From assembly GCA_964500195.1 (NCBI GenBank), contig CAZCND010000002.1, positions 1 through 43,054 on the forward strand: a stretch of DNA of 43,054 nucleotides. Direction: 5' to 3'. The stretch's first letter is position 1. Every line of letters starts with the position of its first letter. Both the position numbers and the translations under genes were made by a program. Below are positions 23,070 through 43,054 of this stretch, in pieces. The notes below the pieces were generated by a model, which made no database searches, had not been told where the DNA came from, and was given only the letters and a program-made list of their open reading frames with translations. Source of the DNA: an uncultured Candidatus Saccharibacteria bacterium (lineage in GTDB: Bacteria; Patescibacteriota; Minisyncoccia; Phycocordibacterales; UBA9973).

Positions 23070-23393
23070 TTAATCCAACAAAATATACATTTCTTTTAAA
23101 ATGTGAAAAGTAAAATTTAATTGTGTCATGCTCACAACGGAAATTGTATATTCAAATGTTGCTTTACCATTCAAAACACTCAAAGGGCATGGTGATAAAA
23201 TAGCAAACCATTCGTATTCGTCAGCAGGAAGTGGAACAACGAAAATTTCATTGTTACTAGTTTCAGTTCTTATTGTTTCAATTACATCATCTAATGATTT
23301 TGTTTTGATTTCACCATTAAGAATCTGTTCATGGATATCTAAATAATCATAGATGCCAGCTATTTTTTTGTTTGATATTTGTGAAAGTAACAT
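23070..23393 (-). CDS. Hypothetical protein (107 aa), cassette ORFan
   Basis: AAGGAGG 5 nt upstream of the ATG; own promoter region carrying a perfect palindrome. Confidence 0.6.
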   Translation of the reverse strand: MLLSQISNKKIAGIYDYLDIHEQILNGEIKTKSLDDVIETIRTETSNNEIFVVPLPADEYEWFAILSPCPLSVLNGKATFEYTISVVSMTQLNFTFHILKEMYILLD

Positions 23394-23670: not shown

Positions 23671-23675
23671 TAATG

Positions 23676-24057
23676 TGGAGATGGCGGGAATCGAACCCGC
23701 GTGCGGAGGGAACTCTTGTATAAATCTACATGTTTATTATGTTCATTTGGTTTAGATATTTACCCTAGAGAACATACAAAAAAAGTAAATACCGAGTTCT
23801 TAATTGTTAGAATCAATACCGAACAATTATTGATTCTTAACCCGATAAATTATGCCCATGATCTATATCGGATGTCTAGAAATGGACACTTGTTTGACCT
23901 AAATTTAGGCGAAAGCAAGAGCAAGGTTTCCAAAATAAGGAGACCCTACTTTAGCGACTTTGTTTACACTTAGTCTTTTAGAGGAAGTTTAAAAAGATTC
24001 CTCTACACTTTACATGCATATACAAGATGATTCTCTTCGTCGAAGCCGATCATCCCC
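23676..24057 (-). ncRNA. ssrA: tmRNA (SsrA), one-piece, CCA not encoded. Predicted tag AKVGSPYFGNLALAFA (resume GCT at 23955-23953, stop TAA at 23907-23905)
   Basis: 5' GGGGATGATCGGCTTCGACG; 3' GCGGGTTCGATTCCCGCCATCTCCA; acceptor stem with G3-U70; lies immediately downstream of smpB. Confidence 0.93.
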
Positions 24058-26969: not shown

Positions 26970-27043
26970 CCGCTTGTAGCTCAGTTGGTTAGAGCATCGA
27001 GCTTATACCTCGAGGGTCCCACGTTCGAGTCGTGGCAAGCGGA
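26970..27043 (+). tRNA. tRNA-Ile with genomically encoded UAU anticodon; CCA not encoded
   Basis: Hand-folded cloverleaf. Acceptor CCGCTTG/CAAGCGG; D arm GCTC-AGTTGGTTA-GAGC; anticodon arm TCGAG-CTTATAC-CTCGA; T arm CCACG-TTCGAGT-CGTGG; discriminator A. Confidence 0.85.
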
Positions 27044-27052
27044 CACGGTTTT

Positions 27053-31795: not shown

Positions 31796-31952
31796 TGCGG
31801 AATACTAGTCGGGATTTGGTCACGAGTTACTAAATTTTTTGCTCCAAGTATTCGCAAAAAACAAAGTACTCGCGACCCCGTCTCGTCAGTCTGAAAAGTT
31901 TTTCAAACTTTTTTCTGGCTACGACCTTCGAATCCCTGCGTCACTCTCCGCA
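31796..31952 (+). repeat. Element C: second member of the A/B/C structured palindromic family. The 3' end reads ...TTCGAATCCCTGCGTCACTCTCCGCA followed by CCA
   Basis: Same architecture as A: terminal stem TGCGGA/TCCGCA plus GGGATT/AATCCC; long GGTCACGAGTTACT...AGTACTCGCGACC hairpin enclosing TTTTTTGC...GCAAAAAA; GAAAAGTTT-TTC-AAACTTTT hairpin. No promoter seen. Confidence 0.5.
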
Positions 31953-32002
31953 CCACAAACAAAAAACAGCAATAATATTGCTATTTTTTGTTTGTGGTGC
32001 GG
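31948..32002. repeat. Near-perfect 27-1-27 palindrome that starts inside the 3' end of element C
   Basis: CCGCACCACAAACAAAAAACAGCAATA-A-TATTGCTATTTTTTGTTTGTGGTGCGG, one mismatch. Confidence 0.9.
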
Positions 32003-32102
32003 TGTATGTGAGTTAAGTACCCCCACGAGTGAGGCACCACAAGGGTATTCTAGCACATTTTGGAAATGAGAAATGAGGCATGAAGGTCGGGGTCTTGGTT
32101 CT

Positions 32103-32242
32103 GCAAATGTTACAAATGAGACACAAAACACGGTGTCTCGAAACTGTGTCTCATTTGCGAGATGTGATGAAAATACCAAGCCCCAAAAAGACAGATTTGG
32201 ATGAGACAAAACAAGACACGGAAAAGTGACTGTAACATTTGC
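32103..32242. repeat. Nested inverted repeats (MITE/IS-end-like remnant)
   Basis: GCAAATGTTACA (32103-32114) pairs with TGTAACATTTGC (32231-32242); CAAATGAGACAC (32113-32124) pairs with GTGTCTCATTTG (32146-32157). Confidence 0.7.
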
Positions 32243-32357
32243 CTTTACTGCACACATATTTTCTAATATGATTCCAAGTATACATGGACGTATCTGGGCT
32301 GAATCTGATGGAGTTTCTAAAGGAACAAAGGTTACTGTGGAGTTGCCGATAAAGTAG
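32205..32357 (+). pseudogene. C-terminal remnant of a sensor histidine kinase (end of the HATPase_c domain only)
   Basis: Translates to ...IFSNMIPSIHGRIWAESDGVSKGTKVTVELPIK*, the typical HK tail hGG.IwveS..G.Gt.f.f.LP. Upstream G1/G2 boxes and the H-box are absent. Confidence 0.65.
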
Positions 32358-32452
32358 AACCATTACGTTTACTTTGACTTATTTCATAAAAAGTTGTAAA
32401 TTAGATTCATATTTTGTGAGTTTATTGAATCATACATTCTATCAAAATAATT

Positions 32453-33463
32453 ATGAATATAAAAAAAATTTTACCTCCCAGGCTTGATAAGAGTAAGCTG
32501 ATAGGGATTATAGCTCCAGCAGACCCTGTTGCCGGTATTTGTCCAGAGGAGACAATTAAGCGTGGGTACGAATATCTAAAAAATAAGGGATTTTCTGTCA
32601 TCGAGGGACGTTCAGTAAAGCTACTTACACAAAAACATACTGCTGGAACAGCACTATCAAGAGTTGAGGATATTCATGATTTTGTAAAAAGAGAAGATGT
32701 TGGATGTATTATGGCCTTTTGGGGAGGTTTTAATACAAATCAATTGCTTGATAAATTGGATTATGACCTGATTAAAGCAAACCCGAAAATATTCATTGGA
32801 TACTCTGATGTTACAGCACTCACTACCGCGATAACCACTAAGACGGGATTAGTGACTTTTTCTGGGCCAGGAGTAATTTCCTTTGCTAAACCAGAACCTT
32901 TTGAATACACATGGAATTATTTTGAAAAAATATGCATTGATCCACAAGAGAATCTTATTATTGAACCATCTCCAAGCTATGCGGATGATTTATACTTTTT
33001 GCGTGAAGATGACAATCATAGAATCAAAAAAAATAATGACGGTTTAAAAGTATTTACATCAGGAAAAGCAACTGGTGAAATCGTTGCAGGTAATCTTCAG
33101 ACCCTACTAATTTTAAATGGTACAGAGTATTTGCCAGATCTTACTGGAAAGATCCTATTTATTGAAGAAGATGAGACAAGTACCCCAGCGCATGTCGACA
33201 GATTTATATATCAATGTAAACAATTAGGTTGGTTTAAAAAAATTGCAGGATTAGTTATTGGAAGATTTACAGAGCAGTCTAGTTTTTCTGAGAAAGATTC
33301 ATTAGAAGATATTTTAAAAGAGCACCTATTCGAAGCGAAATTTCCGATACTTTATAATGTTGATTTTGGGCATTCTGACCCATTAATCACTATTCCAAAC
33401 GGTGGTATTGCAACTATAGACACTGAAAATAAACGGATAATGTTTCAGCAATCGGTGATGTGA
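32453..33463 (+). CDS. S66-family serine peptidase (LD-carboxypeptidase / MccF-like)
   Basis: Ser-Glu-His triad context GYSDVTAL, FIEEDET, DFGHSDP; 336 aa. Confidence 0.85.
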   Translation: MNIKKILPPRLDKSKLIGIIAPADPVAGICPEETIKRGYEYLKNKGFSVIEGRSVKLLTQKHTAGTALSRVEDIHDFVKREDVGCIMAFWGGFNTNQLLDKLDYDLIKANPKIFIGYSDVTALTTAITTKTGLVTFSGPGVISFAKPEPFEYTWNYFEKICIDPQENLIIEPSPSYADDLYFLREDDNHRIKKNNDGLKVFTSGKATGEIVAGNLQTLLILNGTEYLPDLTGKILFIEEDETSTPAHVDRFIYQCKQLGWFKKIAGLVIGRFTEQSSFSEKDSLEDILKEHLFEAKFPILYNVDFGHSDPLITIPNGGIATIDTENKRIMFQQSVM

Positions 33464-33470
33464 TAAAAAT

Positions 33471-34790
33471 ATGTCCAACAATAAAAATCAATCAATAATA
33501 AAAAATATAGAAAAGGTATTGAATGATAAAGTTTCTTATAAAAAAGGAAACTTATTTCACATCGTTAGTCACGTCACAAAGAAAAGTAAGCAAATAAAAA
33601 GTCTTGTAAATAAAAATAAAACTCCTTTTTATGTTTTTGACCAACAAGCACTCGATAATTCCATAGATTTATTTCTGGAAGCATTTAAAAAAGAAATTCC
33701 TTCGTTTAAATCTTACTATGCTCTTAAAATAAACCATCATCCATTTATTATTCAGTGTGCGGTTGATAAAGGAATGGGACTTGATGTTGGAAGTCGTCGG
33801 GAAATCGATATTGCAATAAATGCAGGTTGTAAAGATATTCTTTACTTCAGTCCTGGTAAGACGAAAGATGATTTATTGTATGCAATAAAATATGTAGATG
33901 TTATTACTATTAATATAGATAGTTTTAACGAACTAAAAAAACTAGGTTCCCTAGCAAACAGTAAAAAGAAGCCTATTAAGGCTGGCATACGAATTCATAC
34001 TGACCAATATGGCGATTGGAAAAAATACGGGGTTCATATTAATGAACTAAAAACCTTCTTTAAAGAAGCTGAGAAATACCCCTTTATTGATCTTCAGGGT
34101 ATTCATTTCCACATGTCCAGAAATAAAGATGCTACATTTTATGAAAATACCATAAAAGAGTTGGGGGCTTACCTGAAGAAAAACTTTAATTCAAATGAGT
34201 TGCAAAAAATTAAATACATTGACTTTGGCGGCGGGTTTGAGGTTTATGAATCAGAAGGATACTATCCCTACAAGACACCGCAAGGCGGTATCATACAAAC
34301 AACTAATTCTTACACTGGAACACCGTCCATATTTGATGTTTCATATTACATTCGCGATGCTATTAAAATTGATGAGTATGCCAAAAAAATCGGGCAAGCA
34401 ATAAACGATTATCTCAAACCAATAGTAAGTGCCACGTATTACTCGGAACCTGGACGTATAATATGTAATAGCGCCATGTATATAGTACTGTCTGTTGCTG
34501 ATGCTAAAAACAAAGATAACGTCGTCTTGGACGGTGGAGTAAACATGGTCGGCTGGCAACGTTTCGAACATGAATATTTTCCTTTAGTAAACTTATCTTC
34601 TCCATCAAAAAAAGAAATTAAATGCAACATGTGGGGTAATCTTTGCACCACATGGGATACGTGGGGTTACTATTGCTATGCAAATAGAATACGAGAGGGA
34701 GATATTATTGTTGTCCCCAATCAGGGAGCGCTTACTTACTCACTAGCACAAAATTTTATTCAACCAATTCCGCCAGTTTATAAAATATAA
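33471..34790 (+). CDS. Fold-type III PLP-dependent decarboxylase (Orn/DAP/Arg decarboxylase family)
   Basis: PLP-Lys context YYALKIN, HFHMS, DFGGGF, SEPGRIICNSA, GNLCTTWD, GALTYSLAQNF. Confidence 0.85.
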   Translation: MSNNKNQSIIKNIEKVLNDKVSYKKGNLFHIVSHVTKKSKQIKSLVNKNKTPFYVFDQQALDNSIDLFLEAFKKEIPSFKSYYALKINHHPFIIQCAVDKGMGLDVGSRREIDIAINAGCKDILYFSPGKTKDDLLYAIKYVDVITINIDSFNELKKLGSLANSKKKPIKAGIRIHTDQYGDWKKYGVHINELKTFFKEAEKYPFIDLQGIHFHMSRNKDATFYENTIKELGAYLKKNFNSNELQKIKYIDFGGGFEVYESEGYYPYKTPQGGIIQTTNSYTGTPSIFDVSYYIRDAIKIDEYAKKIGQAINDYLKPIVSATYYSEPGRIICNSAMYIVLSVADAKNKDNVVLDGGVNMVGWQRFEHEYFPLVNLSSPSKKEIKCNMWGNLCTTWDTWGYYCYANRIREGDIIVVPNQGALTYSLAQNFIQPIPPVYKI

Positions 34791-34798
34791 TCAAAAAT

Positions 34799-35620
34799 AT
34801 GAAAAAAGAACTTATTACACCAGAATATATTAAGGGTTTATCTTATACGGATTTCGTGGGACTAATTAATCAGTGGAATGTATTGCCAGGTTCACACGTC
34901 ACATTATCGAAATGGACATGTTTTTCTGGGTTAAATAAAAATTCAAGACTTTTGGAAGTTGCTTGTACTACTGGTTTTTCATCTCGCGAACTCGCACTTC
35001 TCTCAGGCTGTAGCGGTGAAGGATTTGACCTTTCAGAAAAATCTATCAAAATGGCAGACTACAACAAGGAACAATATGCACCCAAAATTGATTTTTCATA
35101 TTCTGTAGCCGATGGATATAAATATAAATCTGATAAACCATTTACTCACATAGCAGTTGGTGCCTCTCTTGGTTTTTTTCCTGATCCAGCAAAAATGCTA
35201 GAAAGGTGCATCAGCATGCTTGAGGATGGTGGACACATTCTCGCTTCTCCGTTTTATGTGACAAAACCATTACCTCAAGCACTAGTTAAAAGAGCACAGA
35301 GAGTGTTCGATATCACTCCAACCGGGATTTCTTACAAAGAAATTATGAAATCGTACAACAAGCTTGAAGTGATTTTTGAAGAGCGGAACAGCTTAGTTCA
35401 AGAGACCAAGGAGGAGCTTGATTACTATTGCAAGTGCACCATAGACCGTGCATGCAAAATGCTTGATATCACGGATAAAAAGGTATACGAGGCTATGTAT
35501 AAAAGGCTTTACGAAGTAAAAAAGATGTCAAACGACCTACGTCCTTACCAGATGTACAGTATACTTGTCTTAAGGTACAGAAAGGCTATATATCCAAATA
35601 GATTTGTTGAGTTGTTTTAA
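34799..35620 (+). CDS. Class I SAM-dependent methyltransferase-fold protein
   Basis: Motif I LLEVACTTGFSS; acidic loop GFDLSEKSI; motif IV-like IAVGASLGFF. Confidence 0.7.
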   Translation: MKKELITPEYIKGLSYTDFVGLINQWNVLPGSHVTLSKWTCFSGLNKNSRLLEVACTTGFSSRELALLSGCSGEGFDLSEKSIKMADYNKEQYAPKIDFSYSVADGYKYKSDKPFTHIAVGASLGFFPDPAKMLERCISMLEDGGHILASPFYVTKPLPQALVKRAQRVFDITPTGISYKEIMKSYNKLEVIFEERNSLVQETKEELDYYCKCTIDRACKMLDITDKKVYEAMYKRLYEVKKMSNDLRPYQMYSILVLRYRKAIYPNRFVELF

Positions 35621-35624
35621 AAAC

Positions 35625-36143
35625 ATGATACTAACTGGAAGCAAAATTAAAGATGAAATAAAATCTGGCGACATCGTCATTGAGCCATTTTGCAATGAAC
35701 AAGTTAATCCAAACAGTTACAATTATCGACTTGGTTCTACTATAAAAGTTTTTAACGGATTCGACGGCGACAAGGCTAATTTTAAAGAGATAAAAATACC
35801 AAAAGACGGTTATGTTTTAGAGCCAAGGAAAATGTATCTTGCGACCACCAAAGAAGTAATTGGCAGTTCAAAGTATGCAATGTCCCTTATCGGCAGAAGC
35901 TCGATGGGTAGGTACGGTCTTTTCTTGCAAGTGTCAGCAAACCTTGGACATACTACTTCAAAACATAAATGGACTTTAGAAATTGTAGCTGCAAGGCCAA
36001 TAAAACTATATCCTGGCATGATAATCGGACAAGTTTCATTTTGGAAAAATTATGGCACAGTTAAAAAATATAATGGCAAATACGGTCATTTAAACCATCC
36101 TCAGGAATCATTTGTTCCCATAACTCAATACCAAAAAATATGA
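35625..36143 (+). CDS. dcd: dCTP deaminase family protein, paralog 1, canonical catalytic residues (ATG at 35625; the track start 35604 overlaps the upstream gene)
   Basis: GRSSMGRYG (Ser/Arg), WTLEI (catalytic Glu), YPGMIIGQVSF. Confidence 0.8.
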   Translation: MILTGSKIKDEIKSGDIVIEPFCNEQVNPNSYNYRLGSTIKVFNGFDGDKANFKEIKIPKDGYVLEPRKMYLATTKEVIGSSKYAMSLIGRSSMGRYGLFLQVSANLGHTTSKHKWTLEIVAARPIKLYPGMIIGQVSFWKNYGTVKKYNGKYGHLNHPQESFVPITQYQKI

Positions 36144-36679
36144 TACTAACAGGTAAAAAAATAATTGAGGAGTTTAAAAAAGGAAAAATTGATATTTCTC
36201 CTTTTGATAAGAAGAGAATAACGACAAACTCTTATGACTTATCCCTAGGACATAATATTGTTCGATACAAAACTGGTGTAATTGACCCAAAATGTAAACC
36301 CCAGCACGAAGAGATAATTATACCTGAAGAAGGTTTGGTGCTTGAGGCTGGAGATTTTGTACTAGGTCATTCAAGCGAGCGTATCGGCAGTGATTTTTAT
36401 GTTCCTATTATACATGGAAAATCTGGTACAGCTAGAATGGGATTGTTCGTACATGTCACTGCTGATTTAATAGATATTGGTTCGCACGGCGTCACAACCT
36501 TTCAACTGTATGCTACTCTTCCAGTTCGATTGTATCCAGGAATGCTTATTGCTCAAGTTAGCTTCTGGCTTCCTTTAGGGGATATCGTTTTATACAAAGG
36601 AAAGTATCAGAATAGCACTGGACCGCTACCATCTTTAACATATAAAGATTTCAAATACGATCTTTTTAAGAAGAAATAA
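36140..36679 (+). CDS. dCTP deaminase family protein, paralog 2, catalytic Glu replaced by Gln; ATGA overlap with paralog 1
   Basis: GKSGTARMG, TTFQL aligned to WTLEI, YPGMLIAQVSF; same MILTG.KI N-terminus as paralog 1. Confidence 0.75.
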   Translation: MILTGKKIIEEFKKGKIDISPFDKKRITTNSYDLSLGHNIVRYKTGVIDPKCKPQHEEIIIPEEGLVLEAGDFVLGHSSERIGSDFYVPIIHGKSGTARMGLFVHVTADLIDIGSHGVTTFQLYATLPVRLYPGMLIAQVSFWLPLGDIVLYKGKYQNSTGPLPSLTYKDFKYDLFKKK

Positions 36680-36772
36680 GATTTTCGATTTCGGGTTGAC
36701 AAAGTAACTATTTTATATTAGTTTGTCGGTAGTACTGTTCGTTAACAATCAACCAAATTAAGGAGGTGTATC

Positions 36773-38221
36773 ATGGCAAGAAAAAGTGAAAAGAAGAGGA
36801 CGAAAGCCCTCGAAATTGATCCACTTGCGTATCGCCGTGAGGCACCAAGAGGATCAGTTGAAGTTTGTGACCTAGACAGAGTACTCCATGGAGAAAAGAT
36901 CACCGTTGTTGGGAGGCTTATGCTTTCTGACAATACAGGTGAAATTTCCAAACTTGGAGTATTTGGCACACTGGATGGAAAGGAAGTTCTTACTCTCGAG
37001 AGAATCGAGGGGAATGGGCTATCAATTCCTGCATTCCTCATGCGTACACCAGAAAACATCGAGATAATGAACTCCGTTATCCACTACGGAGACGTCGTGA
37101 TGTTGGAGGGTGTAAAGCTCTGCATTTCAGGGGAAGATGTAGTTCTTGGAAACGGTATCAAGTTGCTTTCCAAAGCAACGGGTGATGTTTATGACAGCAA
37201 CGTTGATTTTCGTAAGAGATCAAATTTGTATGATCACAGACATCTTCAGTTGATTCAAAACCAAGGAAAGATTCTGCACTTTCGGAGATGCTCGATAGTA
37301 TTCCGCGCAATAAGGCAATTCCTATACAAGGAGGGGTATGATGAACTAAGCATGACTTTGCTTCAGAAAAACTTTGAAGCGGGTCTGGCTGATCCATTCG
37401 TAACACACGTTGCCCAACATGACAGGGATATGTATCTGAGATTGACATCAGAGCTGTTTCTCCGAAAATTGATGGTTGCTGGATTCTCGAAGGTATTTGA
37501 GATCGGTAAATCATTCAGAAATCAAGGGGCCACAGCCGACATGCTTCCTCAGTTTACAATTCTTGAACTGTATCGTGCGTATGCCAGCAGAGAAGAGATA
37601 GAAAACCTAGCAAAGAACATGATCTGCGAAGTTCTTGTTCAATTGTACGGGAGTCCGTCAATTCCCACTGCCAAAGGAGAGATAGATTGCTCGGGAGACT
37701 GGCCATTGTATGATTTTAAGGAAGAAATCGAGAAGTGTACAGGCTTAAGATATGACGAATCACGTCCTGTCGAAGAGTTGGTACACATTTTGGACAAGGC
37801 GGAAATTGCTCATCCTGCAAAGGTGAACAAATATACTGTGGCTACTGCCCTGTACTGCCACGTGATGTCCCACATCACGGGCCCCGCTTTCCTGAGGAAT
37901 CTGCCAGCCGCTCAATCTCCGCTTTTCAAGGTAAACGATGATGGGTCGACCGTTGATGAAACTCTTCTTGTTATTAACGGGATGCTTGTCGCTGACCTTG
38001 TTAATCCAGAGCGTGATCCTCGCCTTATCAGACAGCACATGGAGGAACAATTGACTTACCGCAAGGAAAGTCAAAACGATGGTGTTAACGAAGACATCAT
38101 CAGTGCAATGAAGTTCGGTCTACCTCCATGTAGAGGTATTGGAATGGGATTGGAGCGTCTTCTTATGCTTCTGCTAAACACGGAGGACATAAGAGATGTG
38201 GAACTCTTCCCTGTATTTTGA
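36773..38221 (+). CDS. Divergent class IIb aminoacyl-tRNA synthetase paralog, LysRS-like, with an N-terminal OB-fold region
   Basis: Motif 2 FRNQGATADMLPQFTILELYRAY (LysRS consensus fRNEG...HNPEFT..E.Y.AY); motif 3 GIGMGLERLLMLLL..IRDVELFP; AAGGAGGTG SD. Confidence 0.8.
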   Translation: MARKSEKKRTKALEIDPLAYRREAPRGSVEVCDLDRVLHGEKITVVGRLMLSDNTGEISKLGVFGTLDGKEVLTLERIEGNGLSIPAFLMRTPENIEIMNSVIHYGDVVMLEGVKLCISGEDVVLGNGIKLLSKATGDVYDSNVDFRKRSNLYDHRHLQLIQNQGKILHFRRCSIVFRAIRQFLYKEGYDELSMTLLQKNFEAGLADPFVTHVAQHDRDMYLRLTSELFLRKLMVAGFSKVFEIGKSFRNQGATADMLPQFTILELYRAYASREEIENLAKNMICEVLVQLYGSPSIPTAKGEIDCSGDWPLYDFKEEIEKCTGLRYDESRPVEELVHILDKAEIAHPAKVNKYTVATALYCHVMSHITGPAFLRNLPAAQSPLFKVNDDGSTVDETLLVINGMLVADLVNPERDPRLIRQHMEEQLTYRKESQNDGVNEDIISAMKFGLPPCRGIGMGLERLLMLLLNTEDIRDVELFPVF

Positions 38222-38241
38222 GATGAGGTTTATAACCACGC

Positions 38242-38273
38242 ACCCCGTGTCAGTTTCTGACACGGGGTTTTTG
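38242..38273 (+). terminator. Terminator of the LysRS-like gene
   Basis: ACCCCGTGTCAG-TTT-CTGACACGGGGT plus TTTTT. Confidence 0.8.
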
Positions 38274-38278
38274 TTTAT

Positions 38279-38850
38279 CAGGAAACCCCGCCCGCTTTTC
38301 TGCCTGAGCGTGCGGGGATGAATGGAACCATATACGTATCGCATTCTGATGTGATACGCTTGGTTGCATGAGAATCCGAAGCTTGAATCACTCTGTCTAC
38401 CAAACTCAATATCACCTCGTTTGGGGAACGTTGTATCGTAGAAAATATCTGAAAGAATATGTAAAGAATGAATTTGTCACTCACATCTACACTGTCATCA
38501 AAAAATATCCCACACTCCATATACATAGTATTAATGCAAACGATGACCATGTGCACCTTCAGATTGAAATACCACCAAGCGTCGCTATTGCTGCCGTCGT
38601 GAGGCGTTTGAAAGTGGAGACAAGTATTTACCTTAAGAAACGATTTAAATTTATACGTGAAATGTATATCGACGGCAGCATATGGAGTGTTGGGTATTTT
38701 GTCTCGACAATCGGACTGAATGAGGCGGTAATCGAAAAATATATTGCAAACCAAAATCGAAAAGACAAGGGTGTAACCACTAGCTTCGGGTTCTCATGAG
38801 ATCCAAGGAAACCCCGTCCATCTCTCGTCTGCGAGAGTGTACGGGGAGGA
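38279..38850 (+). mobile_element. IS200/IS605-family insertion sequence (tnpA only) with subterminal hairpins
   Basis: LE hairpin CCCCGCCCGC...GCGTGCGGGG (38286-38317) and RE hairpin CCCCGTCCATCTCTCG-TCTG-CGAGAGTGTACGGGG (38812-38846). Both are preceded by the identical GGAAACCCCG. Confidence 0.8.
38368..38799 (+). CDS. tnpA: IS200/IS605 Y1 (HUH) transposase TnpA
   Basis: YHLVWGTLYRRKYL, HUH motif DDHVHLQI, catalytic Tyr context WSVGYFVSTIG, EKYIANQ. Confidence 0.92.
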   Translation: MRIRSLNHSVYQTQYHLVWGTLYRRKYLKEYVKNEFVTHIYTVIKKYPTLHIHSINANDDHVHLQIEIPPSVAIAAVVRRLKVETSIYLKKRFKFIREMYIDGSIWSVGYFVSTIGLNEAVIEKYIANQNRKDKGVTTSFGFS

Positions 38851-38864
38851 CGTCCATTATATAT

Positions 38865-38900
38865 AAAAAAGGGGCTACAGACAGTGTCCATAGCCCCTTG
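38865..38900 (-). terminator. Terminator of the PheRS-like gene
   Basis: Minus strand AAGGGGCTA...TAGCCCCTT plus TTTTT. Confidence 0.75.
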
Positions 38901-38924
38901 GAACGATTCACCACAGATAGGACA

Positions 38925-40040
38925 TTACATGTACCCTCGATCTCCTTGATTTAGCTTAGGGTAGAGGCGCTGCATCCACCCATTGACCATCGCCTTCGGC
39001 AAAGAACTTTCCAGTGAACGGAATGTCAGTGTTACCACAACATTCTTTTGGTCTGGTCTGATACCGAGGTTTAGTCTCGCCTTTTCTGGAAGTTTATCAT
39101 AGGAAATTTCGGAGTACTCGATCTTCTCTATGAAAACGGCGTCTTGTCCCAGCTCATCGCGAATTTCTTCGCAGATGTCTTCTTCTGTTTTCTCAACAGA
39201 AGTAGAATACGACAGCACCCTTTTCGTTGCAGGCTGATCAGAGACGGTGACGAATTTTTCAAGATTCGCCATCTGACGCTTTATTCGAGGATCATCCGAT
39301 CTCAGAACACGAATGTCATCGATGCCTTTGATGATCATGACGAGTCGATCAAGACCCATACCCAGAGCGAGCCCTGAATACTCTTCAGGATCGAGACCAG
39401 CGTTTTTGAGAACAGTCGGATGGGCTTCGCCACATTCGAGAACTTCGAGCCACGAACCGTTAACAAAAACTTCCACCTCGAGACCCCGCATCGTGTAAGG
39501 ATGTTCAACTTCATTCGCTCGATATTTACATCCTGGAACAACACATTCCAGAATAGTTTCAACCAAGTGAATCAGGTCTGATCGGACGAAACGAGGTGAC
39601 CCCTGTTTTATTCGCCAGACATCCATTTGATGAGGCTCACCGCAATGAGTTTTATCGACAACGTCGCGTCGATAACACATTCCAGGCAAGACAACGACAG
39701 TATCGCCGATACCATTTTGAGAGGCTTTTTTGAGCCAACTCGGAATAGCTGACGAAGTGTGGGTACGCAAGACAGTATCTTCCGTAACATACCTCGTATA
39801 GCGAGAAGACCGCCCTGCATTATCTAACGGGAAGAGAAGGTCGTCGAAGTTTTCTTTTGATGAGACTTCCGGGTTCGAACGAACTTCCTCGACAACTGCT
39901 CCAGCATAGGATTTCTCCAGTGCTCGTCTTACGTTACCAACGACAATGTTGATGGCATGGATCCCATTCTTGGGATCAGTGAGGTCTGGGAGGGCTATAG
40001 AGGCCATCAGACGCTCTGGTGACATAACTTCTTTTTTCAT
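38925..40040 (-). CDS. Divergent class IIc aaRS paralog: PheRS-alpha-like catalytic core fused to a C-terminal FDX-ACB-like domain, with no N-terminal coiled coil
   Basis: NFDDLLFPLDNAGR, VLRTHTSS, motif 2 PGMCYRRDVVDKTHCGEPHQMDVW, motif 3 GLALGMGLDRLVMI. The C-terminal ~95 aa ends VVVTLTFRSLESSLPKAMVNGWMQRLYPKL, which resembles ferredoxin-fold anticodon-binding domains. Confidence 0.75.
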   Translation of the reverse strand: MKKEVMSPERLMASIALPDLTDPKNGIHAINIVVGNVRRALEKSYAGAVVEEVRSNPEVSSKENFDDLLFPLDNAGRSSRYTRYVTEDTVLRTHTSSAIPSWLKKASQNGIGDTVVVLPGMCYRRDVVDKTHCGEPHQMDVWRIKQGSPRFVRSDLIHLVETILECVVPGCKYRANEVEHPYTMRGLEVEVFVNGSWLEVLECGEAHPTVLKNAGLDPEEYSGLALGMGLDRLVMIIKGIDDIRVLRSDDPRIKRQMANLEKFVTVSDQPATKRVLSYSTSVEKTEEDICEEIRDELGQDAVFIEKIEYSEISYDKLPEKARLNLGIRPDQKNVVVTLTFRSLESSLPKAMVNGWMQRLYPKLNQGDRGYM

Positions 40041-40306
40041 GACCGTGTCTCCTTTTCTGTCTGTGCCGTGTCATTACTGACGTGGCTAGGTTTGAGTGAT
40101 ACTAACTTCCGATACTCCTCTAAGTGATCCCTACGCAGGACCGCTAGCCATCGGCCAGCTTTTGACTTATCAGAGTTGTTTGTAACCGCAAAAATCATCT
40201 CAAATGCGGCCGATGGGCTACTACTCTCATCCACTAAAGAGACGATTTTTTCGTCACTTAGTATGGAGGAGCATCGTGCCCTGATTTCTTGAGCTGATCT
40301 GATCAT
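40037..40306 (-). CDS. Hypothetical 89-aa protein, translationally coupled (ATGA overlap) to the PheRS-like gene; ATG at 40306 preferred over the track start 40360
   Basis: AGGAGG 9 nt upstream of the ATG at 40306; its stop overlaps the downstream start; no family recognised. Confidence 0.6.
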   Translation of the reverse strand: MIRSAQEIRARCSSILSDEKIVSLVDESSSPSAAFEMIFAVTNNSDKSKAGRWLAVLRRDHLEEYRKLVSLKPSHVSNDTAQTEKETRS

Positions 40307-40563
40307 AGCTTGATACCTCCTATCTTTAGTATTGTTAAAGAACAACACCCACAGGAACATCCTATAGGTACCCCATCATACATATTATTAATACAAATGT
40401 CAATCTTTTTTGGGGCACATTAGCCAATCAGAGGTTACCAACACCTACCACTAAGGGCGCTCTGGACTCCTGAGAGGTGTTGCGTCATTCCTTGTGTTGT
40501 ATGACAAACGCAACAACACAAGCGCCATTAGGGACTACGGCCAAAGTAGTAGTCCCCGTAAAG

Positions 40564-41829
40564 ATGAAATACTGCCTCTATGCGAGAAAGTCGACAGAGT
40601 CAGAAGAAAGACAAGTCCTTTCAATAGATAGCCAAATCAGCGAGATGCTCCAATTAGCCGATCGTGAGGGGCTTGAGGTGGTCACCATGAAGCGTGAAAG
40701 CCATAGTGCTAAAGAGACTGGTCAGAGACCAGTATTTAACGAAATGGTTGAAGAACTCAAACAAGAGAAGTTCAATGCAATCCTCACTTGGGCACCTGAT
40801 CGTATTTCAAGAAATGCAGGCGACCTTGGAAAAATAGTAGATCTAATGGATTCAGGTAAACTACATATAATAAGAACCTTCGGACAAACTTTTGGAAATA
40901 ATCCAAATGAGAAATTCCTTCTCATGATTCTAGGCTCACAAGCAAAACTAGAAAATGATAATCGAGGTATCAACGTGAAGCGAGGATTACGAACAAGAGT
41001 AGAGATGGGATTATGGCCTGGCATGGCACCACTTGGATATTTAAACCAAAAATTAATGGACAGGAAGTGTCAAATAGTAATTGATCCAGATAGAGCACCA
41101 ATCATTAAGAAAATGTTTGAGAAAGTAGTGTATGAACATTGGAGTGGTAGAAAGGTATATAACTGGTTACGATTTGATTTAAATTTCTATACTCGAGGAA
41201 ATAAACCCCTGACACTCTCAGGGGTTTATCGTATTTTTAATATGCCAATCTATTATGGACCATTTGAATATCCTAGAAATTCTGATAACTGGTATCAAGG
41301 AAGTCATACACCAATAATTACTCAAGAGTTATTTGAAAAAGCTCAAGCACAATTAAAGAGAGATAGGATTGTAAGAGAAAATAGAGAGTTCGCATTCACT
41401 AAACTGTTCACCTGCGGCATGTGCGGGTCAGGCATCACCGCCCAAGAAAAGTACAAAATACTCAAGGACGGTACGAACGCCAAGTACATCTACTATTCAT
41501 GCTCCAAGGCAAAGGACCGTGATTGCAAGAACAAATACATCCGAGAAGAGGAATTGATCGACGAACTCTTCAAGATTATCGACCAGGTGAATATCAACGA
41601 ACTTGGGATGCGCATGAAACTTGAGGAAGAGATTAAACGATTCAACCGACTACAGCGATTGGCAACCAAGGGTACACCAAAATACAATATCAACGAGGAT
41701 GAAATTAATACCCGGGAATACGCCAAGTATGTACTCAAGGAAGGCACTGCGCTCGAAAAACGAGAGCTTCTAGGACATCTAAGATCACGATTACTACTGG
41801 AAGACAAGAAGATTAGCCTGGTTCAGTAA
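40564..41829 (+). CDS. Large serine recombinase (resolvase domain, recombinase domain, zinc ribbon, coiled coil); ATG at 40564 preferred over 40477
   Basis: N-terminus MKYCLYARKSTESEERQ (catalytic Ser context), AILTWAPDRISRN, CGMCGS...YYSCSKAKDRDCKNKY zinc ribbon. Confidence 0.88.
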   Translation: MKYCLYARKSTESEERQVLSIDSQISEMLQLADREGLEVVTMKRESHSAKETGQRPVFNEMVEELKQEKFNAILTWAPDRISRNAGDLGKIVDLMDSGKLHIIRTFGQTFGNNPNEKFLLMILGSQAKLENDNRGINVKRGLRTRVEMGLWPGMAPLGYLNQKLMDRKCQIVIDPDRAPIIKKMFEKVVYEHWSGRKVYNWLRFDLNFYTRGNKPLTLSGVYRIFNMPIYYGPFEYPRNSDNWYQGSHTPIITQELFEKAQAQLKRDRIVRENREFAFTKLFTCGMCGSGITAQEKYKILKDGTNAKYIYYSCSKAKDRDCKNKYIREEELIDELFKIIDQVNINELGMRMKLEEEIKRFNRLQRLATKGTPKYNINEDEINTREYAKYVLKEGTALEKRELLGHLRSRLLLEDKKISLVQ

Positions 41830-41859
41830 ATTGGTGAAAAATGGTAGAATGGGTTTACT

Positions 41860-42429
41860 ATGGAACAAAACTCTACTAAAAAAGTATTCCTTATCCACGG
41901 GTTTCAAGGTACGCCAAATGGTGGATGGCGTTCTTATCTTATGAGCGAACTGGAGAAGCAGGATATCTACGCCTGTTCTCTTTCAATGCCTAAACCAGAC
42001 GAGCCAATTCTTTCTGAATGGTTAGAAGAAAACAAAAGACATATCGACAGAAATCCAAACGATGATATTTATCTAGTTGGTCACAGTCTAGGAGGAACTG
42101 CCATTCTTAGATATCTAGAGCAATTTAATTCTTCAAATCTTAAGGGGGTGGTTATTGCATCTGCTCCATGCCATCAAAATATCAATAGCAAGATTGTTGA
42201 TTTTCTTCGCACAGATTTTAACTGGGAGGTAATGAAGAATAAGGTTGAGCATGTGGTCGTTATTCATGGTGACAATGACCCGAATGTTCCAGTCTCAGAT
42301 GCAGAAGAGACAAGTAATCAATTAAATGGAAAACTTGTCCTTATTCCAGACGGAAAACATTTGAACGGTTCAGCAGGATTTACTGAGTTACCTGAAGCAT
42401 TATCAGCACTAACTGAAATGATGAAATAA
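41860..42429 (+). CDS. Alpha/beta serine hydrolase, YdeN/RBBP9-like
   Basis: VFLIHGFQG, nucleophile elbow GHSLGG, VVVIHGDNDPNVP. Confidence 0.75.
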   Translation: MEQNSTKKVFLIHGFQGTPNGGWRSYLMSELEKQDIYACSLSMPKPDEPILSEWLEENKRHIDRNPNDDIYLVGHSLGGTAILRYLEQFNSSNLKGVVIASAPCHQNINSKIVDFLRTDFNWEVMKNKVEHVVVIHGDNDPNVPVSDAEETSNQLNGKLVLIPDGKHLNGSAGFTELPEALSALTEMMK

Positions 42430-42430
42430 T

Positions 42431-42826
42431 ATGAAAACAATACTTGTAGATGCAGTAAATACAACAATCATCAAAGATGAGTCCGGATCATTCGTGCAAT
42501 TCAAAGAACTTTTTGATTTACTTGAAACCTATTCAAACCCAAAACTTATTGTTACCAATGCTAACGACAATCAACTAATTGAATTTGGACTCAATGATGT
42601 TCCTTATCAAGTATTCACTATGAAGCATAGTCCTGATAAACCAGATCCTGTTTACTTCAAGACACTTCTTGAACAACACAGCTGGCAACCGACTGATGTC
42701 ATTTATTTTGAACACAATCCTGATGCAGTGAAATCAGCTGAGTTAGTTGGCATTACTTCCTATCATTACGATAAGGATAAGAAAGATCTAACAGGATTGA
42801 AACAGTTTCTTGATCAGAATAGTTAA
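42431..42826 (+). CDS. Small HAD-like hydrolase-fold protein with a degenerate motif I
   Basis: N-terminal ILVDAVNT in place of DxDxT; VTNAND; short 131-aa length. Confidence 0.4.
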   Translation: MKTILVDAVNTTIIKDESGSFVQFKELFDLLETYSNPKLIVTNANDNQLIEFGLNDVPYQVFTMKHSPDKPDPVYFKTLLEQHSWQPTDVIYFEHNPDAVKSAELVGITSYHYDKDKKDLTGLKQFLDQNS

Positions 42827-42828
42827 AA

Positions 42829-42868
42829 ACAAAAAGAGCGACATTGTCGCTCTTTTTGTTTTATATCA
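42829..42868 (+). terminator. Intrinsic terminator after the HAD-like gene
   Basis: AAAAAGAGCGAC-ATT-GTCGCTCTTTTT. Confidence 0.8.
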
Positions 42869-42928
42869 ACCTTTGTGGGTCGCACGACATCCATAGGGAT
42901 ATAGGTCGCGAAACTACCAGGTTGTCAA

Positions 42929-43054
42929 TGCGGAGACGCAGGGATTCGGTCACTCTCGTGGATATTTTGCCTTGCTTCGCTTGCAAAATATCTCACTCCC
43001 TCGACCCCCACTCGGGCTGGCCGCTTCGCGGACTTCGTCAGCCCTCGGTTCGAA
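42929..43054 (+). repeat. Element B: third member of the A/B/C family, truncated by the window end at ...GGTTCGAA
   Basis: 5' TGCGGAGACGCAGGGATTCG-GTCAC; GATATTTTGC...GCAAAATATC hairpin; CTCGACCCCC; GGCTG...CAGCC hairpin; then CCTCGGTTCGAA. Collinear with A and C. Confidence 0.5.

Follow-up and report, generated by a model that had tools for sequence, protein, structure and literature searches.

The microcin C cluster (mccABCDEF) and McC-like peptide-nucleotide antibiotic clusters combine the precursor MccA, the ThiF/E1-like nucleotidyltransferase MccB and the exporter MccC with tailoring and immunity enzymes: MccD transfers a 3-amino-3-carboxypropyl group from SAM, the MccE1 domain trims it to aminopropyl, MccE2 is an acetyltransferase, and MccF is an S66 immunity peptidase (PMC8323819). 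HIT (MccH-like) and S51 hydrolases also provide immunity to such compounds (PMC8323819, PMC9239234, PMC7157772). Aminoacyl-tRNA synthetase (aaRS) copies are found in other antibiotic clusters, including the extra SerRS of albomycin (abm), which supplies seryl-adenylate as well as immunity, the LeuRS of agrocin 84 and the IleRS of mupirocin (PMC8323819); these copies are recognisable, functional synthetases of their own family. The class IIb catalytic core has been re-used for non-translational ligation in LysRS/AspRS-derived paralogues such as EpmA/PoxA (GenX), AsnA and LysX, whereas NCBIfam NF051887, 'PheS-related mystery ligase SrmL', is a family that no paper in the library searched was found to mention.

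A locus comparable in part with each of these has been examined in a window comprising the whole 43,054-nucleotide stretch analysed from an uncultured Candidatus Saccharibacteria bacterium (assembly GCA_964500195.1, contig CAZCND010000002.1). From the sequence alone, an earlier note had proposed that 36700-41829 is a G+C-richer island with strong Shine-Dalgarno sites, carrying two divergent class II aaRS paralogues, an IS200/IS605 copy, a small ORF and a large serine recombinase. The observation itself is confirmed, all five genes being present, although 36700-41829 is not one island and contains parts of three independent things; the interpretation is supported only in part. No description of the conserved cluster to which the two synthetase-like genes belong was found.

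Gene content and boundaries of the cluster

In 1-kb windows, 36700-40440 has a mean GC of 0.454 (minimum 0.435) against 0.336 ± 0.024 (maximum 0.394) in the rest of the window, a shift of about 4.9 SD. Per-gene values are 0.448 for the LysRS-like gene, 0.434 for IS200, 0.470 for the PheRS-like gene, 0.467 for the small ORF and 0.405 for the recombinase, whereas the five genes upstream together have 0.352; the step sits at about 36700, between the second dCTP-deaminase-like gene and the LysRS-like gene, and GC decays through the recombinase rather than ending at 41829. Of 44 genes checked, only four have AGGAG(G) upstream, namely the LysRS-like gene, the small ORF, the PheRS-like gene and one unrelated ORF (23070-23393), with none in the host genes or the five upstream cluster genes.

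The conserved unit spans 32294-40404, about 7.5 kb without the insertion sequence, and is found in CPR/Patescibacteria. Its left edge (32294..32357, +) is the 3' remnant of a truncated sensor-kinase gene (...AESDGVSKGTKVTVELPIK*); DNA homology to the closest cluster copy, locus L004, starts at 32294 and includes this remnant, while an intact HisKA/HATPase gene occupies the position in another locus, L065. A candidate promoter for the five- or six-gene operon (TTGACT-17-TAAATT; 32374..32402, +) matches 9 of 12 positions in a consensus scan and lies in a stretch conserved with L004, although it is a consensus match only. The first gene (32453..33463, +) encodes an S66 serine peptidase of the MccF type (Pfam Peptidase_S66 and S66C), a putative self-immunity enzyme, whose best solved relatives are MccF-like BA_5613 (7e-63) and E. 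coli-type MccF (about 3e-49), LdcA-type carboxypeptidases reaching only 1e-15 to 1e-28; the motifs GYSD (Ser118), EEDE (238-241) and GHSD (306-309) are present. A type III PLP-dependent decarboxylase of the Orn/DAP/Arg family follows (33471..34790, +; Pfam PF02784 and PF00278), with DAP/Orn decarboxylases and BtrK as PDB hits; it is a candidate counterpart of the MccE N-terminal domain, although it resembles MccE1 only at fold-family level and no specific match to mccE on plasmids was found. The next gene (34799..35620, +) encodes an MccD homologue, a class I SAM-dependent transferase predicted to transfer 3-amino-3-carboxypropyl, whose best solved relative is MccD (PDB 5fcd; E 5.8e-25, aligned over the full length), the next hit being at 1.8e-4.

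Two dCTP-deaminase-fold proteins (DCD1 and DCD2; Pfam DCD) complete the upstream genes. DCD1 (35625..36143, +; 172 aa from the ATG at 35625, as in public gene calls) keeps the catalytic Glu (TLEI) but has an altered DPGF loop, and scores 81.6 bits against the NCBIfam dCTP_deam cut-off of 92.8; DCD2 (36140..36679, +) scores 97.9 bits, above the cut-off, yet has Gln in place of the catalytic Glu (TFQLY) in all nine orthologues. The LysRS-like gene, here termed LysL (36773..38221, +; 482 aa), has a strong Shine-Dalgarno site (AAGGAGG) and is followed by an intrinsic terminator (38242..38278, +; 12-bp stem and T-run). Convergently transcribed are an 89-aa ORF and the PheRS-like gene SrmL (38925..40040, −; 371 aa), the latter with its own intrinsic terminator (38869..38899, −; 14-bp stem and T-run). 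The 89-aa ORF (40037..40306, −) starts at ATG 40306, as in public gene calls, has an AGGAGG site, and is translationally coupled to SrmL by an ATGA overlap; its Shine-Dalgarno site and ATG are conserved in six loci, substitutions concentrate at third codon positions, and none of 119 homologue clusters has a Pfam domain. A near-consensus promoter of this operon (TTGACA-17-TATGAT; 40375..40403, −), with 11 of 12 matches the best in the region, marks the right edge, homology to L004 ending at 40404.

This gene set recurs at different chromosomal sites in nine other loci. LysL lies next to an S66 peptidase in 10 of 10 independent loci, with the MccD-like transferase, the PLP decarboxylase and the DCD pair in 9 of 10, and with SrmL in 9 of 10, whereas the flanking genes differ in every locus. 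One locus, L066, is rearranged (LysL> <SrmL, then S66>...DCD2>HIT) but keeps the gene set and adds a HIT hydrolase; a variant, L012, has an S51 peptidase, a carbamoyltransferase (MccY-like), a methyltransferase and, in place of MccD plus decarboxylase, an AdoMet decarboxylase; variant loci in this way add further enzymes known from peptide-nucleotide clusters. The note's suggestion of a link between the synthetase-like genes and the adjacent MccF-like operon is therefore strongly supported. Its alternative, a role for flanking 'tRNA-minihelix-like' elements, is not supported; these are short tRNA 3'-end-like fragments at which no tRNA or Rfam family is called.

The neighbouring insertion sequence and recombinase block

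The IS200/IS605-family insertion is a private 578-bp element (38279..38856, +; tnpA 38368-38799, 143 aa, no tnpB; Y1_Tnp and NF033573 hits) lying between the two convergent terminators, with subterminal AGGAAACCCCG hairpins at both ends. It is absent from loci L004, L001, L005 and L006, where homology resumes at 38857-38859, and is not part of the cluster; its junction is ambiguous by up to 8 nt. A separate recombinase block (40434..42950, +) comprises the large serine recombinase (40477-41829, likely true start 40564; Resolvase, Recombinase and Zn_ribbon domains), an alpha/beta hydrolase (41860-42429), a HAD-like protein (42431-42826), a conserved 118-nt end block (42821-42948) and a tRNA 3'-fragment (42931-42950, minus strand). 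Its left end is a sharp boundary (40433|40434) at GTTACCAAC, shared by 14 loci with unrelated left flanks, while the end block, on the side away from the ligases, lies next to a tRNA-Ser in related loci.

The reading of 36700-41829 as one horizontally acquired island mobilised by the recombinase rests on the adjacent, divergently transcribed recombinase, on GC that is raised across both ligases and the recombinase 5' end, and on a large serine recombinase about 9 kb from the cluster in L066. It is contradicted by the comparison of loci, and is considered very unlikely: 0 of 82 loci with 57-93% identical recombinases carry any cluster gene, 0 of about 65 other ligase loci have the recombinase adjacent, and the GC step and Shine-Dalgarno sites recur in loci that have no recombinase. 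Signs of horizontal mobility are nonetheless shown by the ligase pair itself, the GC and GC3 of which stay constant across hosts of 0.33-0.55 GC, and the relatedness of which is partly incongruent with that of the upstream genes.

Two remodelled synthetase-like proteins

Both proteins keep the full synthetase fold, as judged from AF2 models, but have family-wide remodelled substrate pockets and score far below the NCBIfam cut-offs for lysS (217-254 bits against 428-468) and pheS (112 against 237), supporting the note's suggestion of divergent, neo-functionalised paralogues rather than housekeeping LysRS or PheRS. LysL comprises an N-terminal OB barrel and a class IIb catalytic core (pLDDT 81.7; full-length LysRS matches in Foldseek, TM 0.72), and belongs to a discrete family of about 75 clusters at 53-92% identity, followed by a gap to 31% identity with LysRS. 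In a residue census, R249 (72 of 72) and E227/E265/Y267 are kept, L398/L405 stand in place of the Mg2+ ligands, D/V/P replaces the lysine pocket N/F/E, and E202, Q251, E396, E413 and R454 are new invariant residues. As both canonical Mg2+-binding Glu residues are missing and the motif 3 Arg is His in 13 of 72 members, LysL could be a poor adenylating enzyme or none at all.

SrmL scores 402 bits over the full NF051887 profile (cut-off 300) and is a member of that family, as are CPR, cyanobacterial and Pseudomonas relatives, which all pass the cut-off. Its predicted structure (pLDDT 92.4) is that of a monomeric, mitochondrial-PheRS-like ligase with a PheS-type catalytic core and a C-terminal ferredoxin-fold anticodon-binding-type domain (272-363), the top Foldseek hit being human mitochondrial PheRS (FARS2, PDB 3cmq; TMq 0.77, rmsd 3.5 Å over 381 columns, 25% identity). 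R124, Q138, R232, A225 and G227 are kept, but H180-P-Y182 replaces the Phe-stacking F-P-F, and HQMDxW replaces HQMEG, across three phyla; in contrast to the mitochondrial enzyme, SrmL is bacterial and often coupled to an 89-aa ORF. SrmL also occurs alone among housekeeping genes in cyanobacteria and Pseudomonas, indicating that its function does not require the cluster, and some genomes carry two SrmL paralogues within 1-6 kb.

Candidate functions of the cluster

Target replacement, in which one or both proteins would be working synthetases insensitive to an aaRS inhibitor made by the adjacent operon or by competitors, as the note proposed, remains possible for SrmL but unlikely for LysL, and is doubtful overall. 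Complete synthetase architectures with anticodon-binding-type domains, the intact ATP-binding motifs and A225/G227 pocket floor of SrmL, its stand-alone distribution in cyanobacteria, Pseudomonas, Myxococcus and Longimicrobium, like that of orphan immunity genes, its GC often differing from its flanks, and the SerRS, LeuRS and IleRS precedents are consistent with this role; the low family scores, the replaced lysine pocket and Mg2+ ligands and variable motif 3 Arg of LysL, the His and Tyr at the two Phe-stacking positions of SrmL in every lineage, and the paired SrmL paralogues speak against it, and known resistant aaRS copies normally still score as their own family.

Modification of a tRNA or translation factor with an aminoacyl or aminopropyl-type group, with LysL acting like EpmA/PoxA on EF-P or on an RNA recognised through its OB domain, is considered somewhat less likely still. 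EpmA is a LysRS paralogue, anticodon-binding-type domains are retained, the aminocarboxypropyl-transfer plus decarboxylation logic would also fit a macromolecular acceptor, and polyamine and hypusine-type genes lie nearby in some loci (deoxyhypusine synthase and AdoMet decarboxylase in L001; AdoMet decarboxylase in L012). However, the EpmA hit is weak (112 bits against a cut-off of 287), EpmA and AsnA lack the OB domain that LysL keeps, there is no EF-P or MprF context, no efp, tRNA gene or RNA family is conserved in the cluster, the polyamine genes are not conserved neighbours, and the MccF-type, S51 and HIT hydrolases of the cluster variants are hallmarks of immunity to small aminoacyl-nucleotides. 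An anti-phage role, through depletion or alteration of (d)CTP or a translation-blocking nucleotide made on infection, with the operon sitting in a defence island, appears least likely of these three: it draws on the two dCTP-deaminase-fold proteins, the variable chromosomal positions, and a Type ISP restriction enzyme, Fic, zeta toxin, PycTM and a DNA methylase as neighbours in other loci, but no cluster protein matches a PADLOC family apart from a generic methyltransferase hit, DCD2 lacks the catalytic Glu, no relative of LysL was found in viral contigs, and the best-matching characterised relatives are antibiotic tailoring and immunity enzymes.

The favoured explanation, held at roughly even confidence, is an aaRS-derived route to a small aminoacyl-nucleotide resembling the microcin C warhead. 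While the gene content, its conservation across loci, the folds, the active-site substitutions and the independence from the recombinase and insertion sequence are established by the analysis, the chemistry, the product and the role of each ligase are inferred. In this view LysL, with an intact ATP-binding motif 2, would activate a non-lysine substrate and form the aminoacyl-nucleotide scaffold, perhaps alongside SrmL; the MccD homologue would transfer a 3-amino-3-carboxypropyl group from SAM and the decarboxylase would trim it to aminopropyl, as MccD and MccE1 do in microcin C; the DCD pair would bind or alter a cytosine-type nucleotide part, a base to which the carbamoyltransferase and methyltransferase of L012 are also inferred to point; the MccF-type peptidase would protect the producer by cleaving the aminoacyl-nucleotide bond; and SrmL, with its coupled 89-aa partner, would be either a second ligase adding an aromatic-type residue or an insensitive replacement of the target enzyme. 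Several features sit uneasily with this model: no MccA-like short ORF ending in Asn is conserved upstream, and no MccB/ThiF-like gene and no exporter, MccC included, lie in the cluster, so that a secreted Trojan-horse antibiotic is not supported as such; ordinary aaRS chemistry gives a labile acyl-phosphate rather than a stable phosphoramidate, leaving the formation of a stable product unexplained; and the anticodon-binding-type domains of both ligases suggest an RNA partner that the model does not use. The cluster also differs from that of microcin C in having no MccE2 acetyltransferase, and from that of albomycin in having no AbmF-type amide-forming enzyme. On this reading, two class II aaRS-derived ligases and two dCTP-deaminase-fold proteins would take part, in tiny uncultured CPR bacteria, in making an aminopropylated aminoacyl-nucleotide without a ribosomal precursor peptide and without the MccB adenylyltransferase.

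Base composition, ribosome-binding sites and the extent of the region

The observation made in the earlier note, that a G+C-richer stretch with strong Shine-Dalgarno (SD) sites carries a LysRS-like gene, an IS200/IS605 copy, a PheRS-like gene with a coupled small ORF and a large serine recombinase, was confirmed. In 1-kb sliding windows the composition shift, whose disappearance had been set beforehand as a condition for rejecting the claim, remained; positions 36700-40440 have a mean GC of 0.454 (minimum 0.435), against 0.336 ± 0.024 (maximum 0.394) for the rest of the window, with a sharp step at about 36700 and a gradual decay through the recombinase gene (0.405), the alpha/beta hydrolase gene (0.384) and the HAD gene (0.343). 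The SD claim is correct and stronger than originally stated, as only four of 44 genes checked have AGGAG(G) upstream: the LysRS-like gene, the small ORF, the PheRS-like gene and one unrelated ORF (23070-23393), whereas the host genes and the five cluster genes upstream of 36700 have none. The near absence of SD sequences suggests SD-independent initiation in this organism, with the ligase cassette as an exception. Each of the named genes is present, encoding a class IIb LysRS-like protein of 482 aa; an IS200 Y1 transposase of 143 aa, without tnpB; a PheS-like protein of 371 aa; a translationally coupled small ORF; and a large serine recombinase with Resolvase, Recombinase and Zn-ribbon domains. 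The window additionally carries a tRNA-Ile with anticodon UAU (26970-27044) and a tmRNA with tag peptide VNKVAKVGSPYFGNLALAFA (23675-24057).

The interpretation offered in the earlier note was partly supported: the two synthetase-like proteins are indeed neither an ordinary LysRS nor an ordinary PheRS and lie in a cluster with an MccF-like peptidase, but a single island in which the recombinase carries the ligases was not supported. The region is three things, not one. The closest related locus (designated L004; L numbers denote the loci and contigs compared) is 84-87% identical in DNA and aligns to positions 32294-36688, 36682-38278 and 38857-40404. The conserved unit therefore starts 160 nt upstream of the MccF-like gene, inside the 3′ remnant of a truncated sensor histidine-kinase gene (32294-32357) that is shared with L004 and replaced at this position by an intact kinase in L065, another cluster-bearing locus, and it ends at the −35 box of a near-consensus promoter (TTGACA-17-TATGAT, 40403-40375). 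L004 differs by about 240 extra nucleotides between DCD2, the second of two dCTP-deaminase-fold genes, and the LysRS-like gene (L004:8421-8663). The IS200/IS605 element is a private 578-bp insertion at 38279-38856, sitting exactly between the terminators of the two convergent ligase genes; it is identified by PF01797 and NF033573 hits, HVH and GYF motifs, hairpins at both ends, and an empty site in the cluster-bearing loci L001, L004, L005 and L006. One contig encoding an identical LysRS-like protein has a 91-aa minus-strand gene call in place of the transposase (L152:2854-3129), in an intergenic gap of the same length, where the IS copy may be disrupted.

The recombinase lies outside the conserved unit and belongs to a very widespread family, with 232 relatives in metagenomes at up to 93% identity. 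Among 82 retrieved loci encoding 57-93% identical recombinases, 80 from metagenomes and two from viral contigs, none contains any of the eight cluster genes, although four have the same alpha/beta hydrolase downstream and one has the HAD gene, the cargo being variable. In 14 of these loci homology to the window begins at exactly the same base (40434, GTTACCAAC; boundary 40433|40434), with unrelated sequence to the left in each, and a 118-nt block (42821-42948) recurs 1.2-5.9 kb to the right of the recombinase in at least ten loci, abutting a tRNA-Ser gene in the five that were scanned. The conserved landmarks of the recombinase block (40434-42950) therefore lie rightwards, away from the ligases, and the element is read as extending in that direction, a reading that also rests on where large serine integrase genes generally sit in their elements. 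In three related loci a LOOT RNA (Rfam RF03000, 74-82 bits) lies 3-7 kb upstream of the recombinase (L070:4917-5037, L074:822-948 and L082:4040-4161), with none in the window. Conversely, about 65 loci carrying either ligase have no recombinase next to them; one of these, L066, has one about 9 kb away.

Two inverted copies of a tRNA 3′-end-like motif (TTCGAATCCCTGCGTC; 0.07 expected by chance), at 31927-31942 (+) and 42935-42950 (−), flank 31943-42934 and are probably the tRNA-minihelix-like elements B and C of the earlier note. ARAGORN, with introns allowed, found no tRNA at either site, although the right-hand position holds an intact tRNA-Ser in related loci; BLAST between the two flanks found no extended repeat, only a shared tRNA 3′-end motif of 14-16 nt. 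A 27-nt near-perfect palindrome (96% complementary, 1-nt loop) at 31948-32002 lies in a GC-rich, probably non-coding stretch between def and the cluster. Rfam searches of the flanking intergenic regions at permissive thresholds gave only sub-threshold hairpin matches, the palindrome included. The case is also a caution, in that a GC and SD anomaly next to a recombinase looked like one island but consists of three unrelated juxtaposed elements.

A conserved gene cluster with MccD and MccF homologues

Comparison of ten independent loci (the window, L001, L004, L005, L006, L011, L012, L065, L066 and L067) places the LysRS-like gene, here termed LysL, always next to an S66 peptidase; in nine loci it is also with a PLP decarboxylase, an MccD-like SAM transferase and two tandem dCTP-deaminase-fold genes, and in nine with the PheRS-like gene, SrmL, while the genes flanking the cluster differ in every locus. 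In L066 the ligase pair sits on the other side of the five-gene operon and a HIT hydrolase follows; in L067 SrmL is missing. L012 is a variant (L012:5753-15298) in which LysL and SrmL are joined to an S66 peptidase, a carbamoyltransferase, a CN-hydrolase, a methyltransferase and an AdoMet decarboxylase, with an S51 peptidase beyond SrmL. Several contigs carrying CPR-type SrmL or the whole cluster (L004, L005, L010, L014, L015 and L018) are labelled as Hyphomicrobium, Thermotogota or Gammaproteobacteria MAGs, and are probably mis-binned.

In microcin C, MccD transfers 3-amino-3-carboxypropyl from SAM to the phosphate, MccE1 decarboxylates it to aminopropyl, and MccF cleaves the aminoacyl-nucleotide bond for immunity; HIT and S51 hydrolases are further immunity enzymes, and carbamoyltransferases are known tailoring enzymes (PMC8323819; PMC7157772; PMC9239234). 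The only strong solved relative of the cluster transferase is MccD (5fcd, E 5.8e-25, full length), the next hit being 1.8e-4. The peptidase matches MccF-like BA_5613 at 7e-63 and MccF at about 3e-49, against 1e-15 to 1e-28 for LdcA-type enzymes, and has the Ser-His-Glu motifs (the GYSD Ser, the EEDE motif and the GHSD His). The decarboxylase, encoded adjacent to the MccD homologue, is a type III PLP enzyme whose likeness to MccE1 is at fold level only, since a tblastn search against plasmids, intended to link it to mccE, gave only generic lysA-type hits at about 24% identity. In L012, the AdoMet decarboxylase plus methyltransferase-fold pair is inferred to be a plausible second way to add an aminopropyl group.

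The two dCTP-deaminase-fold proteins are conserved as a pair. Against the dCTP deaminase model (TIGR02274, cut-off 92.8 bits), DCD2 scores 97.9 bits but has Gln at the position of the catalytic Glu (E. coli E138) in all nine orthologues, whereas DCD1 keeps the Glu but scores 81.6 bits and has an altered DPGF loop. No exporter and no MccB-like domain (ThiF/E1-like nucleotidyltransferase) was found in any cluster ORF, and no conserved mccA-like short ORF ending in Asn lies upstream of the S66 gene in nine loci, although very short ORFs elsewhere in the cluster cannot be fully excluded. No PADLOC defence family was matched, and no LysL relative was found in viral contigs.

The GC step is a property of the cluster itself. 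In five other low-GC loci the five upstream genes have GC 0.33-0.39 (GC3 0.26-0.35), whereas LysL, SrmL and the small ORF have 0.42-0.49 (GC3 0.41-0.60); in hosts of GC 0.44-0.55 the ligase pair still has 0.45-0.50. Amino-acid composition was rejected as the cause of the shift because GC3 rises as well (0.45-0.49 against 0.25-0.34). Pairwise identities of LysL and SrmL correlate at r = 0.95, whereas the upstream genes correlate with LysL at r = 0.74, and L001 has ligases 84-86% identical to those of the window but upstream genes only 56-77% identical. The ligase pair thus behaves as a semi-independent cassette that keeps its own composition and ribosome-binding sites, for which frequent exchange between hosts is the simplest reading, although selection on the mRNA is not excluded.

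The two synthetase-like ligases and the coupled small ORF

LysL belongs to a discrete family of about 75 clusters, all about 482 aa and 53-92% identical, found in CPR metagenomes, below which there is a gap to 31% identity with true LysRS. It scores 217.1 and 254.5 bits against lysS cut-offs of 427.6 and 468 bits (TIGR00499 and NF001756, respectively), and 111.8 bits against the 286.9-bit cut-off for EpmA/PoxA (TIGR00462), a type with the catalytic core only, whereas the AlphaFold model of LysL (pLDDT 81.7, pTM 0.79) shows an N-terminal OB barrel of the anticodon-binding type at 42-133 plus the class II core. The model superposes on full-length LysRS structures at TM 0.72 (Foldseek), although Pfam PF01336 is not detected. 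Across 72 members the motif 2 Arg and the E227/E265/Y267 equivalents are invariant, but by alignment to solved LysRS structures, together with the predicted model, the two Mg2+-binding Glu residues (LysU E414/E421) are Leu (L398/L405); the lysine side-chain pocket (LysU N424/F426/E428) is D408/V410/P412; the motif 3 Arg is His in 13 members; and new invariant residues appear at E202, Q251, E396, E413 and R454. LysL is therefore a LysRS-fold protein with a rebuilt active site, not a LysRS.

SrmL is a member of NCBIfam NF051887, "PheS-related mystery ligase SrmL", scoring 402.1 bits against a cut-off of 300 over the full profile (residues 18-366 against profile 2-349 of 349), and only 111.7 bits on bacterial pheS (TIGR00468, cut-off 237). 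Its AlphaFold model (pLDDT 92.4, pTM 0.88) best matches human mitochondrial PheRS over the whole length (3cmq, TMq 0.77), including the C-terminal ferredoxin-fold domain. Across 58 sequences from three phyla, aligned to solved PheS structures, the ATP motifs and the A225/G227 floor (the A294 and G296 equivalents) are kept, but the two Phe-stacking residues are His and Tyr, such that FPFTEPS is HPYTxxG, and HQMEG is HQMDxW. No PheT-like ORF was found in the window or next to SrmL in the loci examined, and the 43-kb window, the only part of the genome covered, holds no canonical lysS or pheS/pheT. Relatives of SrmL occur in CPR (55-93% identity), Nostocales (about 46%), Longimicrobium, Myxococcus, and Pseudomonas/Luteibacter (34-38%); outside CPR they are usually single genes among housekeeping neighbours (xpt, rep and glgA in Pseudomonas and cyanobacteria, where no partner family was found). 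Three CPR genomes carry second, divergent paralogues 1-6 kb from the first copy (L007:16441-17700, L009:6778-7998 and L013:11252-12379), 38-43% identical to it and all above the NF051887 cut-off.

The small ORF coupled to SrmL is a real gene of 89 aa, with a conserved SD and ATG, substitutions concentrated at third codon positions, and 119 homologue clusters without a known domain. A non-coding leader such as a T-box was considered and rejected on the basis of this codon-position pattern and the conserved SD and ATG, and because Rfam found nothing.

Inferred function and its alternatives

An aaRS-derived route to an aminopropylated aminoacyl-nucleotide, with MccF-type self-protection, is rated about as likely as not. 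What the analysis establishes is the conserved linkage, the homologies, the folds (those of the ligases from predicted models) and the substitutions, together with the independence of the cluster from the recombinase; the chemistry, including the activity of the MccD homologue and the substrate of the S66 peptidase, is inferred. The model has several weaknesses: there is no carrier peptide and no exporter, it does not explain how a stable bond would form, it gives no role to the anticodon-binding-type domains, and SrmL exists independently of the cluster in other phyla. Among the alternatives, target replacement, mainly for SrmL, is considered unlikely; macromolecule modification of the EpmA or hypusine kind somewhat less likely again; anti-phage defence more doubtful still; and the recombinase-island model highly improbable.

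SrmL is already catalogued as a family without a function, and LysL is named only "amino acid--tRNA ligase-related protein"; literature searches on SrmL, PheRS paralogues, aaRS-like enzymes with MccD, and Patescibacteria found no description of either family or of the cluster. Relative to microcin C, the novelty would lie in aaRS-derived ligases standing in place of MccA and MccB in an aminoacyl-nucleotide system of otherwise microcin-C type. More tentatively, and on balance less likely than not, enzymes derived from tRNA synthetases (LysL, perhaps with SrmL) may have taken over the role of MccB and MccA, and would build a non-ribosomal, aminopropylated aminoacyl-(cytidine-type) nucleotide in CPR bacteria, a previously unrecognised biosynthetic route to aaRS-inhibitor-like molecules. 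Because the cluster has neither a carrier peptide nor an exporter, the product might act inside the producer or its host cell, in growth control or abortive defence, rather than as a secreted antibiotic.

If LysL builds an aminoacyl-nucleotide that MccD- and MccE1-type enzymes then aminopropylate, the microcin C warhead chemistry can be reached without a ribosomal peptide and without an E1-like enzyme, which would widen genome mining for aaRS inhibitors. The cluster would give a testable context, and so a route to function, for two orphan aaRS-derived families, one of which, SrmL, is spread over at least five phyla; and it would show a secondary-metabolite or toxin pathway in the minimal genomes of CPR bacteria.
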